From: Candidatus Omnitrophota bacterium
Lineage (GTDB): Bacteria > Omnitrophota > Gorgyraeia > Gygaellales > Profunditerraquicolaceae
Assembly (NCBI GenBank): GCA_030693145.1
Contig: JAUYBI010000041.1
Coordinates: 10,228 to 74,227, forward strand
Length of the DNA stretch: 64,000 nt
Direction of reading: 5' to 3'
Under the pieces are notes generated by a model. The model was given only the letters and a program-made list of their open reading frames with translations, searched no databases and was not told where the DNA came from. The position numbers were made by a program, and so were the translations under genes. Positions 30,001-39,000 of the stretch are shown piece by piece; the stretch's first letter is position 1; each line of letters begins with the position of its first letter.

Positions 30001-33000
30001 ATGCCGCGCGCGATGATTTAAAAGTTCACTTTGTCTCCAATGTGGATGGCACGCACATCGCGGAAACCTTAAAAGATCTTAATCCCGAGACCACCCTTTT
30101 CATTATTGCTTCTAAAACCTTTACTACCCAGGAAACTATGGCCAACGCTAATACAGCAAAAGAGTGGTTTATAAAAAATGCGGCAGTCAACGAGAATCGA
30201 AATCGGGATTCTGCCGCGGCGAATATGTTTGAGTTCTGGGATTGGGTAAGCGGGCGTTATTCCTCACATCTAAAACTGCATTTTGTAGCGGTTTCCACGG
30301 CGGAAAAATTAGTTGAAGAATTCGGAATTAATACCGACAATATGTTTGAATTCTGGGATTGGGTAGGCGGACGTTATTCTTCCTGGTCTGTCATCGGCCT
30401 CTCTATCGCCTGCTATATCGGTTTTGATAATTTTAAAGAATTGCTCTCCGGCGCTCATGCCATGGATCTGCACTTCAGGAATACGCCTTTTGAGAAAAAC
30501 ATTCCTGTAATCCTGGCGCTTTTAGGCGTTTGGTACAATAATTTCTTCAGAGCCCAGTCGCACGTCCTTCTGCCTTACGATCAGCATCTGCATCGTTTTG
30601 CCGCCTATTTCCAGCAGGGCGATATGGAATCAAACGGCAAGAATGTGGGTAGAGACGGCAAGCTGGTAGATTATCAGACTGGGCCGGTTGTCTGGGGCGA
30701 GCCGGGCACCAACGGCCAGCATGCCTTTTATCAATTGATTCATCAGGGCACGAAATTGATTCCTGCGGATTTTATCGCCTTTGCCCAAAGAAGCAGCCAT
30801 GAGTTTGATAAATACGAAGAGTTAAAGGCGCGCTTAGACGAACATCACAAAATATTACTTTCCAATTTCTTTGCCCAGCCGGAAGCTTTGATGAAAGGTA
30901 AAACCGTCCAAGAAGTTGAAGAAGAATTTAGAAAAGAAAATGCCAAGTTAAAAGAGAAGGGTAAACCCGAATTAAGCGAGGAAGAAATCTCTCGGCTTAC
31001 GCCTTTTAAGGTCTTTACAGGTAACCGCCCGACCAATTCTATCCTGGTTAAGAAGCTCACTCCCTATACGCTCGGTATGCTCATCGCGATGTATGAACAT
31101 AAGATTTTCGTGCAGGGCGTAATCTGGAATATCTACAGTTTTGACCAGTGGGGTGTAGAATTTGGTAAAAAGCTTGCCAAAGGCATCCTAAACTTAGACC
31201 CCGATCATTATTTGGATCAGCTTGAGCCAGGAACTGTTGTAACCGGACACGACTCCTCAACCAATGGCCTTATTAATGCTTATAAGGATATGCTGGACGG
31301 TTCTAAAGACGGCGGCAATGTTACAGAAGAAAGAGAAATTTTGTTTCAATTTAGAAAGAATCACAAAATAAGAAAATATGTAAGATATCTGATGCGATTT
31401 TGTTTCGAGCAATTTGAGGTAAGGCGAGTTGATGTCAATAGGATGATTTATATTATTTTTCAATCAGAACACAGCAGTTTTGAAGGAGTTAGAGAAGCTC
31501 TTTATGAGGCTGGTTTTAATTGGAAAAATAAGGAAAATATTTACAACAAGATTTATAGCAAATACAGTAGAGAAACAGCGCCTTTTGTAAAATACAACAT
31601 TTTAAAAGAATATATTCAGCCAAAAGGATTTGGTTCAGATTCGGTGATTATAGACATAGGTTGTGGTGATCTTGCCATCGCAAAACAGCTTATTAAGGAT
31701 ATGCGCACGCGTATCCCTAAAGACTATTTACCTACAATATATGGTATAGATTTTCCAGAGCCGCCAAAAACAACAGGGGACGATAAGATTAAATACAAAC
31801 AGCAGAATGAAAATAATGCTGGTAGGGTTACGATGGACGAAGAGGTAAAGGCCGATAGGATATGGATAATTTCCGCATTGCATCATATGCCTAAAGAAGT
31901 AATGGCTTCTATTTTAAAAGAAGCTTACCGCTTACTTAAAGCTGATGGCGAATTAATCGTGTTTGAGGACGTTGTTTTGGAATCAAAAGAACCGAAATTT
32001 AATGAAAAGAAATTAGCTAAAGGCAGGGTAAATAAGCTTTCAGAGGAAGAGCGCAGGATTGCTTTTACTATCTTTGATTGGCACGCTAATTGCGTTGTCG
32101 GTGGGCATGGTTACGTGCCTATGCCGGGAAATTATTATACAGAAAATAAATGGATTCAGGTATTTTCTGAAGCGGGATTCAGCGTAGAAGATTCAGATTA
32201 TATCGGTGTATATAAGAAAAAGTTTAGCAATTTGCCGCATTCAATCTTTATATTAAAAAAGAAAGACGGCGGTAAAACTGGAAAAGAGCTTGTCCAAAAT
32301 TTTAATAAAAGCTATGAGGAGTATTTGCAAAAAGTTGAACATGTTGAATTATCTGAATCGGTTTTGAAAGAAGTAGCCAGAAAAATAAGAAATAACCAAA
32401 AGGAAAGCAAAAACAAGATTTATGTTGTGGCAATCGACGGTAATTCAGGGGCTTTTAAGAGCACTGCCGCAAAGAAGATTGCTAGGTTAATCCGGAAATC
32501 AGGAATTAGAGCAATAGTGATTCATCGGGATTGGTTTATTGATGATCGGGATGCCAGATATGAAAGAATAGATGAAGCCCTGAAAAACAAAGAACTTATT
32601 TATAATGATGAAGAGATTTATCTACGGAAGCCCAAATTCGTTCATGAAGTATTAAGGAGTCTAAAAAGATTGAAGAGAAATTTAAACAAAGAAGTAAGGC
32701 TAAAATTTACCGAACTTTACAGTAAATACAAGGGAGGAAAATTAGTAAAGAAAGTATCCAAAAAAATCTCAAAAGGAACAGTTGTAATCATAGAGGGAAA
32801 TTACTTGTTAAAGAAAGAATGGCTTAAATATTTTGATTATAAGATTGTTATGTTGGCAAAGCCGTCGATTGGCCTTGAGCGCAGATTAAAAAGGGATTCG
32901 CATACTCACAAAGACGAAGTAAAGAAGATGTTTTTAAGGGTTAATACTCCTTCTTATTTTAAATATTTAAGGAAAGAAAAACCAGAAGTCGCGGCTAACC

Positions 33001-36000: not shown

Positions 36001-39000
36001 GATATCTTACTTTTGAGCTCGGAGAAGAAAGATTAAACGTTGTAGGTTTGGATATAAGTTTTGATATGGTAAAACAAGCTTCAAAGATAGCAAAAGGAAA
36101 GGTTATATATGTTAATGCTAATGGGGCACAAATGCCTTTTAAAGATAGAAGTTTATCGCTGATAATAAGTATGAGTACTATTGAGCATATGAAAAGGAAA
36201 GAAGTTCCACTGTTCCTTAAAGAAGCCTCTCGAACATTAAAGGATGATGGTTATATTCTTATATATTTCCCTGTTAAAACTCCTGCTTCAAGATTGATTC
36301 GTTTCCTGAGGACAACCTTTGAAAAGGATTTTCCCAAAGAGGCAATAGATGACAATATAGATACTACTCATACATGGTGGTACACACAGCAAGATTTTAT
36401 GAAACTACTTCCGGATGCTTTTAAACCTGTTTTGGTAGATTACTTTATTTATAGAACGACAGTTTGGCCAAAGAAAATAATTGAATTAGCTAAGAAGGCC
36501 CAAAAAATTCTGGATAAACACGATAAGACTAAAGTTATAAAAAAGAATTTGGGTTTTGGGATGTATCTTTTAGCTCAAAAGAAAGCTCGTGTCAACTTAT
36601 CTAACATCGATAATTATTATATTATTATACCTGCGATTGATTTAGGAGGAACAAACATAAGAGTTGCCTTGTTGCGAAGAGAAATTAGGAAAGGAATAAT
36701 TATTGGAAAACCAGAGATTATCTGGCAAGGAAATGGTTTAAATCTTACTAGAGCTACCAGTAATAAAAATGTCGTTGACGTCGATAAGTTAGTGGATATA
36801 ATAATTTCTTTTATTTCTGAAGGTCTAAATTCAAAAGAGGCAAAGAATGGGATAATTTCAAAGACACTGGGTATTTCAGCACCCGGGGCGTGGCAAGAAG
36901 ATGGGTATGTTTATCCTGGGACAATTCCTAATATACCTTCGTTAGAAAGCTTAAACCTTGCGGAATTAGTGAATAATAAATTAGGTAATGATTGGAAGGT
37001 GTTTATCAATAACGATGGCGTGTCTCATTTCTTAGCCGCGATACATTATTTGCTCAATTCAATTGAACAAGAGTGCTACTTTGAGCTTAGAAGGACATTA
37101 GATCCCTATCCAAAGATTATTGGACTCATTCCTGGGACTGGATTAGGTGGCGGTGGTTTCTTTATCAAAAATAAGGAGGCAATTCCAATGCTTGGCCCTC
37201 AGCAGTTTTTTGATATTATCCTCCGTAAAGGGAAAGGTAGATATTCAGATAACGTCTTACTGGCTGATGATTTAATCAGTGGAAGAGGGCTTGAGTTGCT
37301 CGCTAGGCAGAATGAGATTTTGTGTACGATAGGTAATATTGGTGGACAGGTTTTGAGCGATTTAGCGCTTGGACGCAAGAGAGATGACTCTGTTCAAGCA
37401 GCGGCTATTAATATATTCGAACAGGCAGGTAAAGATCTCGCCGAAGTTATTATCAAGATTCATAATGGAGAAGGAAAAAAGGCAATTGTTAATCAACCGG
37501 AAACAATTGAGAAACAGTTTTGGCAAAATGTAAAAGGTTGTAAAGTTTTCGTGCTCGGAGGATGGCTTATCAAAGATGCAGCTCAGAAGTTTACCCTGCC
37601 TATTTTGAGAGAGGAACTCGTTAATAGAGGTTATAACGATATTATAGTAATTGAATCAAACCAAATTCAAGGATTAGAGAAAGTAGCGCAAGATACCGGG
37701 ATCTTAGGAGCTGCCTTATTAATTCCCCCAGAAACAATTATGGCGGATAGGCAAACAATATGTCAGCAAATCAAGAATGAAAGTGGCGATTTCACTGGGG
37801 ACGGCGGAAAGCGGGAAAAAACAGAACTGTTCCATCTTCTTGCAGATGAAGTAGTGAGCAATAAAGATGGAGGAGAAAATGAAACTGGGAAGTGGGTCCC
37901 GCTTCCGGAATTTAGGGGTACATTAGTCATGAATGAGGAAAGCAAGCGGCTCACGTTCGCCGGTAACGAGCCATGCGTTAAGCTTAAGTTTAGCTTGTAT
38001 ATTGTCCGTCACGGCCAGACATATTTTAATCAAATAGGCAATACATTTCAGGGAGCTAGTGATGGGAAAAACAATCAACTTACTCAGCAAGGGCAAGATC
38101 AGGCAAAAAAAGCTGCACCTTTACTTTGGAACAAGGTTAGCAGAATTATCCCAGAGGACATGGTACTTATTTCCAGCGAGTTAACCAGGGCTATAGAAAC
38201 CGCGCGAGCCTTTACCGACTTTGTCCTAAAGGAAACCGGAGAGCAACGGGATGTGTCGATCGATCCGCTTGTGAACGAAATTAATCTGGGAGACTGGGAC
38301 GGCAAGCGGGAAGATGAGCCGCACGGCGACAGTATGAAATTTATTAATGAGATGAATATTGAAGCTAAGTCAACTACTAAGGGATCAGAGAGCTTTTATG
38401 ATTTGCTTGTTCGGCAGAAGGCGTTGTTAGATAAATTAAATTCATTGTACGAGGGTAAAACGGTGGTTCTTTTTTGCCATGGATGTATGAGCGCGGCACT
38501 GCGCGTCCTCATCAGAGATCCTGAAGTCCTGAAAGACGGGCTGGCAGATTGGCCGCACACCATGATTCCAAACGCAACTCCGGTATTATTCAATTCCCTA
38601 ACCAGAGACGGCGGAGATTTCAGCAATGACGACCACATTGAAAAACAGATAGGGAAGTCATGGCAGCTGTGGTTAGAAGGTAAACCGCAAGAATCCCTGA
38701 AGGAATTTGACAAAGCTGTTAGGGATTGTAAATCTGTTCTTCAGGGTAAGTTATTTGATAATGCGTATTTGCGCCGTTTAGATATGCTTTCTTTAGCCTT
38801 AAAAGGCTATGGAGTGACAACTAACTATGTGGCCGGAACCGTATGTTCAGGTGCATTGAATAACTTCGAGAAATCAGTTTACCAAAAGATAATCGCTAGG
38901 GCCAGAGAGTCAGGAATATTATCCGGTCTTAACACGGTAACTCTATTTTTCGATGACAAGCTAAGTATAGATCCTTTTATCGGTATTGGGGTTTTACCAA

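Follow-up and report, generated by a model that had tools for sequence, protein, structure and literature searches.

A bacterial-type hexokinase module in a DGG-punctuated giant multi-enzyme reading frame of Omnitrophota, a candidate polyprotein

Introduction

How does a hexokinase come to lie between methyltransferases, a P-loop kinase and a histidine phosphatase in one bacterial reading frame, and would such a frame yield one chain or many enzymes? This question is raised by a stretch of 64,000 nucleotides (nt) from a Candidatus Omnitrophota bacterium (contig JAUYBI010000041.1 of assembly GCA_030693145.1, forward-strand positions 10,228 to 74,227), which is called the window below and to which all coordinates refer unless a relative is named. 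A preliminary description, made from the sequence alone, had read the region 31560-38600 as seven enzyme domains in one frame. The region turned out to be only a short section of a frame that exceeds 21,332 codons and is not an ordinary multidomain protein, as whole-gene-sized enzyme modules are joined in it through the tripeptide Asp-Gly-Gly (DGG). It is proposed here, with slightly better than even confidence, that the region is a six-module stretch of a giant multi-enzyme open reading frame (ORF) whose product is a polyprotein, the junctions being inferred processing sites as well as the limits of duplication units.

Giant genes of Omnitrophota became known between 2022 and 2026. West-Roberts et al. 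(10.1101/2023.11.21.568195) described 'Archaeovorin'-type giants, the full-length representatives of which have peptidase domains of the C39 and S8 types close to the N-terminus; they suspected cleavage, but the 'cleavage points' were unknown, and this gap blocked structure prediction. Nielsen & Lui (10.64898/2026.06.07.730766) introduced a 'multi-enzyme metabolic cluster' class, reported giants of up to 147,155 amino acids (aa) and listed methyltransferase, phosphoglucomutase/phosphomannomutase (PGM/PMM), radical SAM, ROK and hexokinase domains among those of the giants. The window gene appears to be a member of this known class, and the junction motifs are a newly seen property of it.

A stop-free frame that spans the window

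Direct counting revealed zero stop codons in + frame 3 across all 64,000 bases. The stop-free frame (3..63998, + strand) comprises 21,332 codons and is open at both window ends, with both termini of the giant ORF falling outside the window. Each of the five other frames contains 712-2,294 stops (1,838 and 2,294 in the remaining two + frames), and all other ORFs of the window are at most 181 aa long; four of them on the - strand (32954-33451, 33470-33985, 35447-35704 and 38396-38713) match no family and were taken as spurious. The coding strand shows a strong skew of G over C and of A over T, with a GC skew of about +0.2.

Pfam and PDB searches placed about 30 enzyme families along the length of the frame, the Pfam tables giving the best stretch per family only. 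The beginning of the frame carries, in this order, B12-binding radical SAM, DegT aminotransferase, APS kinase, two PHP, CofD and PGM/PMM domains. These are followed by a divergent module resembling phosphoglucose isomerase (PGI), two eukaryote-type PGI modules and a unit of shikimate-DH-N, 6PGD and 6-phosphogluconolactonase (6PGL), and then by the seven domains of the region 31560-38600. The remainder downstream holds an amidohydrolase, half of a HUMPS/OMP-decarboxylase barrel, SIS, PEMT and methyltransferase domains, HEAT repeats and a CN-hydrolase. Multi-enzyme giants are defined by a length of 10,000 aa or more, a variety of Pfam families and the lack of a dominant repeat, and the gene, which encodes 21,332 aa or more, belongs among them by all three features.

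Since eukaryotes are the best-known source of the hexokinase family, one could suspect an artefact or a sequence of non-bacterial origin, be it an assembly chimera, a pseudogene remnant, DNA read with a reassigned code, or DNA of a eukaryote or virus in which a eukaryotic hexokinase is encoded. However, zero in-frame stops over 64 kb, compared with about 700-2,300 in each other frame, exclude pseudogene decay, and independent contigs from NCBI, JGI and ENA display the same architecture and module families. The nearest relatives of the hexokinase are prokaryotic, and neither introns nor tRNAs nor Rfam RNA families were found in the window. Stop-codon reassignment was rejected, since the frame contains no stop codon that could be reassigned. 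An artefactual or non-bacterial origin is thus regarded as very improbable.

DGG as a joint between modules

DGG occurs 53 times in the frame, compared with 5.8 occurrences expected from composition (z 19.7), and is its most over-represented tripeptide; one-substitution neighbours (NGG, EGG, DGA, DGS and others) are not enriched. None of the 53 copies lies inside a Pfam-matched stretch, where 13.2 would be expected (p ~3e-7), and the median distance from one DGG to the next is 284 residues. The density amounts to 2.5 per 1,000 residues in the window ORF versus 0.14 in standalone hexokinases. Units bounded by DGG match whole standalone proteins end to end, as seen for the hexokinase and methyltransferase modules, and some units hold two to three domains (PRK-like with DUF89; methyltransferase with ASKHA; ShikDH with 6PGD and 6PGL). 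DGG is an in-frame, lineage-specific joint between modules.

Within ten residues on either side of DGG, S, K, Q and R are enriched and W, C, Y, P, M and I are depleted; the flanks are polar and predicted to be flexible. Such flanks would suit an uncleaved mega-enzyme, a single chain ('metabolon on a string') that is possibly tethered to the membrane by C-terminal hydrophobic segments and in which DGG acts as a flexible hinge. A frame that stays open across more than 50 junctions fits this explanation as well. However, passive linkers normally vary in both length and sequence, whereas the 53 junctions of the window all have the identical tripeptide and its near variants are not favoured. Moreover, some junctions occur in pairs around spacers of only 2-28 residues, which would be of no use as hinges. 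Six such DGG-to-DGG spacers are present (12534-12617, 25917-25922, 37809-37865, 43143-43208, 45996-46028 and 50073-50141).

Further details of individual junctions were noted. One 15-residue sequence recurs after DGG at two places (nt 12534 and 15768). An extended junction of the form [DG]RS[AT]R[LF]DGG is found four times (50310-50342, 50901-50933, 51879-51911 and 54573-54605) in similar GC-rich DNA (..CGCTCAGCGCGCCTTGACGGCGG), and its RSxxL part resembles the RSELR junction of the Omnitrophota giant P0237, which is described below. Two ways of obtaining separate proteins during translation were considered and rejected. Internal translation starts after the junctions are contradicted by the lack of a Met after DGG (0 of 53), and a continuous frame would be unnecessary for them; GGAGG is present in some junctions only, GGA being the first Gly codon in 8 of the 53 DGGs, and no in-frame ATG follows in the junction sequences displayed. 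Ribosome skipping of the 2A type was rejected in view of the lack of an NPGP-like motif and of a conserved upstream peptide.

Six whole-gene-sized units around the hexokinase

The region 31560-38600 lies in + frame 3 without a stop codon and is best explained as six consecutive units, each of whole-gene size: a methyltransferase; a P-loop kinase with DUF89; a hexokinase; a methyltransferase with an ASKHA-like kinase; a 19-aa spacer; and a histidine phosphatase. All features given below are on the + strand. The limits 31560-38600, which stem from the preliminary description, begin 81 codons into the first module and end 2 codons short of the end of the last one. Its central statement, that two methyltransferases, a P-loop kinase, DUF89, a hexokinase and a histidine phosphatase share one frame, was borne out by Pfam matches above the gathering scores and by the stop count, and the sequence motifs that it quoted are found in the translation.

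A DGG junction (GACGGCGGC, 31308..31316) separates the second PGI module from the first unit, m16 (31317..32264, 316 aa), which is a putative class I S-adenosylmethionine (SAM) methyltransferase with a specific N-terminal extension (Methyltransf_11, 27.1 bits; cut-off 21.2). Standalone proteins of 297-312 aa (P0144-P0146) cover residues 14-315 of m16, and the corresponding module of the giant P0121 is 54% identical to it from end to end. After the next DGG (32265..32273) follows m17 (32274..34448, 725 aa), in which a PRK/uridine-kinase-like P-loop kinase is joined without DGG to a damage-control phosphatase of the DUF89/ARMT1-like type. The kinase domain (PF00485, 32424-32981) scores 27.2 bits (cut-off 22) and has the Walker A sequence GNSGAFKS; the NCBIfam 'kinase' model NF005807 matches it with E 4e-16, and no NCBIfam cut-off is reached. 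The ARMT1-like/DUF89 domain (PF01937, 33252-34058) reaches 128.2 bits (cut-off 25) over profile positions 17-295 of 311 and contains the motifs DNAGED and KGQANY; a damage-control phosphatase model of NCBIfam matches with E 6.5e-20, under the equivalog cut-off of that model. The m17 kinase and DUF89 parts are 55% and 44.5% identical, respectively, to separate DGG-bounded modules of the Omnitrophota giant P0231.

The hexokinase module m18 (34458..35801, 448 aa) is directly preceded by the DGG junction GACGGCGGG (34449..34457) and directly followed by GACGGCGGT (35802..35810). Downstream of it, m19 (35811..37799, 663 aa) starts with a class I SAM methyltransferase (domain at 35979-36263; Methyltransf_11/25, 63-67 bits) and continues with a divergent ASKHA-type region that resembles sugar kinases (~36627-37721). 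Two DGGs enclosing the 19-aa spacer peptide (37809-37865) occupy 37800..37874. The last unit, m21 (37875..38606, 244 aa), is assigned to branch 1 of the histidine phosphatases by His_Phos_1 (PF00300, 37995-38501, 85-91 bits; cut-off 21.7). The catalytic RHG and the second His are present (IVRHGQT, CHGC), the GC content at third codon positions (GC3) is 0.48, above that of the neighbours, and no NCBIfam equivalog cut-off that would name a specific substrate is reached. A further DGG (38607..38615) closes this module. The unit adjoining it downstream, m22 (38616-39587), belongs together with m05 (12627-13340) and m07 (14934-15758) to an unannotated family of DGG-bounded modules, which are mutual paralogues (26-31% identity).

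The hexokinase belongs to a bacterial clade

Both halves of the hexokinase profile are matched far above the gathering scores and almost completely: Hexokinase_1 (PF00349, 34509-35051) with 212.3 bits (cut-off 24.3) over profile positions 14-201 of 201 (E ~1e-63 to 8e-63), and Hexokinase_2 (PF03727, 35070-35771) with 228.1 bits (cut-off 24) over positions 2-242 of 242 (E ~1e-68 to 1e-67). The hexokinase assignment of the preliminary description has therefore full profile support. The module also aligns end to end (residues 14-440) with the two halves of human HK2 (264 and 262 bits), and the PDB search returned HK2 with E 1.4e-157. A check of the ATP-binding residues, which had been suggested along with the assignment, found the phosphate 1 (DLGGTNFR), phosphate 2 (GTGSN) and adenosine (GSGxGAA) motifs all kept. 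TFSFP, WTK, NDTVGT with the catalytic Asp, NMESG, EEKMVSG and DGS are likewise retained, as is every invariant column of alignments of 15 and 66 sequences. AlphaFold (AF2), run with an alignment, predicted the two-lobe hexokinase fold (pLDDT 90.3, pTM 0.86), for which Foldseek gave target-normalised TM scores of 0.84-0.88 against human glucokinase, the Hxk proteins of K. lactis and yeast and the HXK proteins of rice and Arabidopsis. In this model, both flanking DGGs lie in low-confidence tails outside the fold, the upstream one in the N-terminal tail and the downstream one in the segment 483-492 (pLDDT <50).

The family had been called eukaryote-like, a label that does not fit the relatives of this module. 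Its closest sequences are prokaryotic proteins of ~450 aa from metagenome-assembled genomes (MAGs) of Aminicenantes/Acidobacteriota, Omnitrophota, Lentisphaerae and Victivallales with 48-54% identity, whereas vertebrate hexokinases are only 35-39% identical. A quick neighbour-joining tree without bootstrap placed the module in the prokaryotic clade, beside another embedded HAD-hexokinase fragment. It shares with the standalone bacterial hexokinases of ~450 aa (Acidobacteriota/Aminicenantes, Lentisphaerota and Omnitrophota MAGs) full-length identity, the catalytic motifs and the termini, which lie within a few residues of those of the homologues. In contrast to them, the window copy has neither a start nor a stop codon of its own, is set between two DGGs and carries a 2-residue insertion before the adenosine motif. 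The composition of the module looks native (GC3 0.35, skew +0.21). Judged by profiles, alignments and the predicted fold, m18 is a complete hexokinase of the bacterial clade with intact catalytic motifs.

A divergent ASKHA-like region next to the second methyltransferase

The ROK-type glucokinase that had been proposed as a second sugar kinase could not be confirmed. In the 433 residues after the second methyltransferase, Pfam gave no match at E<=1 apart from spurious ones, and no profile supports membership in ROK. The only NCBIfam match is NagK (NF009835) with E 0.013 and 14.9 bits, compared with a cut-off of 380, and neither the PDB sequences nor a word-indexed search of a set of 5.8 billion proteins yielded a match. 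ROK proteins possess the zinc-binding motif GHx(9-11)CxCGxxGCxE; CxCGxxGC is absent here, and no Cys/His cluster follows GTGLGGGG. Comparison with the hexokinase profile by hhalign aligned 16 columns only, corresponding to the phosphate-1 motif (probability 27%), and a single-sequence AF2 run gave an unusable model (pLDDT 33). ASKHA-type sugar-kinase motifs were recognised by eye only, and weak similarity was seen to an ASKHA-like module of the giant P0130. The region is best called a divergent ASKHA-like kinase, which appears not to be placeable in the ROK family (PF00480).

The neighbourhood of several sugar kinases and a phosphatase had been read as redundancy within one polypeptide. The shared frame was confirmed, whereas a designed fusion is not required: whole-gene modules are concatenated with DGGs between them, and the redundancy of kinases and phosphatase therefore needs no special explanation.

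Other giants carry their own junction motifs

Searches that used the 2,430-aa region or the methyltransferase module as query yielded partial giant ORFs as relatives, and all named ones come from Candidatus Omnitrophota/Omnitrophica MAGs; the window itself contains no marker gene. The motif survey comprised about a dozen of these relatives, all retrieved via one module family. Scans of GTDB species genomes and JGI metagenome contigs with the hexokinase module and the alignment of the methyltransferase module revealed no close relative. Some relatives are stop-free over their entire contig, namely L001 (8,938 nt), L002 (8,252 nt) and L003, which contains 18.7 kb of a partial ORF of 6,219 aa (P0231). 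P0231 uses DGG 16 times, with 1.5 copies expected (KDGG z 28.8), and its 1,182-aa ShikDH-6PGD-6PGL module is 52.6% identical to that of the window, with DGG at both ends in both giants. At 2063-2070 of L003, one DGG-punctuated ORF overlaps another over 8 nt (ATGTTTAA). Either a giant ORF truly starts here, or an even longer ORF is interrupted by a frameshift, which could be programmed or due to a sequencing error.

DGG is also the recurrent peptide of P0125 and P0178. Other giants use different peptides: ASPL or SSP[LIV] in P0121, P0189 (z 39) and P0135, GASLG in P0148 (z 26) and RSELR in P0237 (z 32). In each giant, its own motif lies 2-14 residues past the conserved end of the methyltransferase module, which matches the position of DGG in the window and is the place where standalone homologues end. 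On three contigs, the junction motifs are absent from ordinary genes (0 in 5,547, 3,016 and 2,842 aa), compared with 2.3-4.3 motifs per 1,000 residues in the giant ORFs. A further point against DGG as a passive hinge of a mega-enzyme is that the motif at the homologous position changes from lineage to lineage without becoming less exact.

Peptide or nucleic-acid signal

A junction could also function mainly as DNA or RNA, the peptide being incidental. Oligonucleotides such as GACGGCGG, GCCTCGCCGCTG and GGCGCGAGTTTGGG would then serve as a joint for recombination or gene capture, or as an RNA signal, and would allow the in-frame insertion, duplication and shuffling of modules. All DGG sites of the window are encoded by GAYGGNGGN, and 30 of the 53 read GACGGCGG, an 8-mer for which no copy was seen in another frame or on the opposite strand; this restriction to the coding strand and to the frame is counted in favour of such a signal. 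Codon choice in the motifs of three relatives is, furthermore, far from background. In L005 (213-15758), 9 of 12 GASLG copies are exactly GGCGCGAGTTTGGG and AGT is used in 11 of 12 (p 2e-8). In L006 (20-15301), TCG is found in 16 of 22 copies (p 1e-13) and Leu is always encoded by NTG. In L003, GAC and GGC are each used in 13 of 16 motif copies. L001, although from a different assembly than L006, uses the same 12-mer GCCTCGCCGCTG for ASPL. In addition, mobile-element-rich flanks of giants have been reported (10.64898/2026.06.07.730766).

Other observations speak against a mere nucleic-acid signal. The same peptide is kept with very different codon sets: L006 encodes ASPL as GCCTCGCCGCTG and SSPL as TCAAGCCCATTG, which differ at 7 of 12 bases, and in L004 (10001-23092) RSELR is written with mixed codons (CGN or AGR, TCN or AGT, CTN or TTA). 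In the window, the last Gly of DGG uses all four Gly codons at background frequencies, and non-synonymous one-step variants of the motif are not enriched. The codon bias of the window DGGs (GAC 68%, GGC 70%) was tried as proof of an RNA signal but is weakened by the context background, which reaches 48% GAC for D before G and 54% GGC for G before G (Fisher p 0.03 and 0.10); it is mostly a general context effect, and the bias is stronger in the relatives. Moreover, 8-14 nt are short for homologous recombination. A nucleic-acid signal would also be compatible with a polyprotein rather than exclusive of it, and as the principal function of the junctions it is considered quite improbable. The junctions may have been created from a template sequence and then kept by selection on the peptide.

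Modules as units of evolution

The two PGI modules (24117-25907 and 29493-31307) are 78% identical at the protein level and 76-83% at the DNA level; with a GC3 of 0.47-0.49, they are richer in GC than their neighbours. Their nucleotide similarity (24141-25867 versus 29490-31306) does not extend past the DGGs that bound the second copy. The order of modules also changes between giants, as PRK-like and DUF89 domains are fused without DGG in the window and are separate DGG-bounded modules in reverse order in P0231. The modules behave as evolutionary units, and the DGGs bound the unit of duplication. GC3 ranges from 0.24 to 0.49 per module and GC skew from -0.07 to +0.38, with stepwise changes at DGG boundaries; the GC-richer modules are both PGI copies, the histidine phosphatase and CofD. 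This suggests that modules of differing age or origin stand within one frame. Duplication ending at DGGs, shuffled order and mosaic composition would also be in line with a junction that acts as a DNA joint.

Two further modules deserve mention in this context. The module at 21816-24107, which surfaced during the search for peptidases, adds a third PGI-like member, which is divergent (PDB 1zzg, E 1e-9; no Pfam match) and has a GC3 of 0.44 and a GC skew near zero. A DGG-bounded module of 137 aa at 41985-42395 corresponds to no more than the first half of the OMP-decarboxylase/HUMPS barrel, on the N-terminal side (profile positions 4-104 of 221), and no family match was obtained for the module directly after it; the half barrel may be a truncated or decaying module within an intact frame.

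One chain or many enzymes

For the polyprotein reading, the following sequence of events is proposed. Dozens of ordinary genes would lose their start and stop codons and become concatenated in frame through a genome-specific junction, DGG here and [AS]SPL, GASLG or RSELR elsewhere, and new modules would be added through the templated junction sequence. Ribosomes would read through, making the junction peptide part of the primary product; read-through is presumed because the frame stays open through every junction. A cognate protease would then cut at the junctions, thereby freeing the individual enzymes, either after Gly-Gly in the manner of papain-like or C39 peptidases or after Asp in a caspase-like manner. 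Cleavage is thought likeliest because exact boundary motifs that differ between lineages mark the protease sites of viruses, and C39 and S8 domains have been reported in giants. A recurrent motif between the units, as in polyproteins, is indeed present, with 53 DGGs and none of them within a domain. Cleavage at the junctions, with the hexokinase set free to work in the cytoplasm as an enzyme of ~450 aa, is a proposal that falls a little short of an even chance.

The hexokinase segment is most likely cytoplasmic, because its 13,800 residues are free of transmembrane helices and contain ATP-, SAM- and NADP-dependent enzymes. Hydrophobic 19-mers are lacking in the first 13,800 residues, and ten candidates follow after them. 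Candidate transmembrane segments are confined to the last third of the ORF (51912-52000, 63120-63290, 45774, 46737-46970 and 59973); some of them directly follow a DGG and resemble N-terminal signal anchors. Besides the hexokinase, the segment holds PGM, three PGI-like, 6PGD, 6PGL and HPS/PHI-like modules, and would thus most likely serve the entry, interconversion and repair of hexose phosphates. The hexokinase, standing alongside PGI, PGM, 6PGD/6PGL and sugar-phosphate phosphatases, would be part of a set for hexose entry and repair, which agrees with the patchy calls of standalone hexokinase and PGI in complete Omnitrophota genomes.

Several results weigh against a cleaved polyprotein. Among the 21,332 residues, a peptidase was detected neither by Pfam in any module nor by a PDB search with six large unannotated modules, and Pfam did not detect one in four related giants either, of which the first 1.1-1.4 kaa from the N-terminus were covered. 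Neither SecA nor C39 has a Pfam match in the window; SecA-like and C39 domains are reported to be typical of full-length Omnitrophota giants, and both ends of the ORF lie outside the window. DGG is not accompanied by the amphipathic leader consensus of C39 substrates, as the ten upstream residues show no conserved hydrophobic pattern; the residue directly before the Asp, which would be P4 if the cut follows Gly-Gly, is mostly K, L or R. Other lineages use motifs without Gly-Gly ([AS]SPL, GASLG and RSELR), and C39 would therefore not be the general reader. Furthermore, the junctions between the PRK-like domain and DUF89, between methyltransferase and ASKHA-like region and between ShikDH, 6PGD and 6PGL are devoid of DGG, and the related giants P0123, P0211 and P0160 contain no recurrent motif. 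Finally, the junction oligonucleotides of several genomes show stronger conservation than would be needed to keep the peptide, which points to an additional or alternative role at the nucleic-acid level.

The negative result of the protease search fits the uncleaved mega-enzyme, and covalent multi-enzyme proteins such as AROM, CAD and PKS/NRPS do exist. Membrane-anchored multi-enzyme architectures have been discussed by Nielsen & Lui (10.64898/2026.06.07.730766), who did not invoke cleavage. However, the resemblance of some sequences after the junctions to N-terminal signal anchors is difficult to reconcile with a single chain. Enzymes that are normally oligomeric, such as PGI and 6PGD, would be constrained in it as well. 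Together with the exactness of the junction peptides, these points make an uncleaved chain unlikely, although it is the least unlikely of the alternatives to a polyprotein. The wider proposal that Omnitrophota giants in general are cellular polyproteins, in which the junction is read twice, once as a DNA joint for module capture, duplication and shuffling and once as a lineage-specific protease site, is put forward tentatively.

Comparison with known systems

Viral polyproteins possess protease-specific junctions, as exemplified by the LxGG sites of the coronavirus PLpro and by the sites of alphavirus nsP2 and potyvirus NIa. They share with the window gene one long ORF for many proteins and a short junction motif that is conserved within lineages and differs between them, and Gly-Gly at P2-P1, as in DGG, is common for papain-like proteases. 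The window gene, in contrast, is cellular and metabolic and ~10-50x longer, its cleavage is inferred and a protease was not found. Nuclear polyprotein precursors of Euglena and dinoflagellates (LHCII, RuBisCO small subunit) contain conserved decapeptide linkers, which are removed by processing. These are also cellular polyproteins with units separated by a conserved short linker; however, they are eukaryotic, consist of tandem copies of the same protein and are processed after organelle import, whereas ~50 different enzymes follow each other in the bacterial window.

Double-glycine leader peptides are cut by the C39 peptidase domains of ABC transporters and have hydrophobic residues at -4, -7 and -12. 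A Gly-Gly pair at the presumptive cleavage site is common to both, and C39 domains are reported in Omnitrophota giants, but LSxxELxxIxGG is absent from the DGG sites, where an Asp at -3 is invariant instead. AROM, CAD and FAS/PKS/NRPS likewise combine several catalytic units of related pathways on one polypeptide. Their domain order is fixed, their linkers vary and their chemistry is channelled, whereas giants of the window type show shuffled order, duplicated or truncated modules and junctions of exact motifs.

With the Omnitrophota giants of both preprints (10.1101/2023.11.21.568195; 10.64898/2026.06.07.730766), the window shares an ORF of >10 kaa, many enzyme Pfams, partial hydrophobic segments and, as closest relatives, proteins of Omnitrophota MAGs. 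Methyltransferases, PGM/PMM, PGI, radical SAM, HEAT and hexokinase are common to both, as may be ROK-like kinases. The exact, lineage-specific junction peptide between whole-protein modules is new here. Junction motifs are found in neither preprint: in the preprint texts, 'glycine' occurs 0 times in West-Roberts et al., and 'cleav' and 'polyprotein' occur 0 times in Nielsen & Lui. A literature search returned nothing that pairs Omnitrophota with 'polyprotein' or describes junction motifs, and a metaproteomic study of the enrichment that contains V. archaeovorus does not mention the giant protein.

Implications

The hexokinase itself appears to be an ordinary enzyme of the bacterial clade, and its odd neighbours follow from concatenation. 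The junction peptides provide concrete candidate cut sites for the explicit question of whether the giants remain one chain or are cut up, and metaproteomes that are already available could be screened for peptides with a semi-specific end at a junction. Giants can also be split computationally into modules of ~300 aa for annotation and folding. Co-variation of motif and protease across genomes offers a route to the protease that would read the junctions, and the capture and shuffling of modules become open to study. Hexokinase, PGI, PGM and pentose-phosphate steps that seem to be 'missing' in these episymbionts may hide inside giant ORFs. If the polyprotein reading is true, Omnitrophota would organise and express genes in a way that has no known precedent in the central metabolism of any cell.

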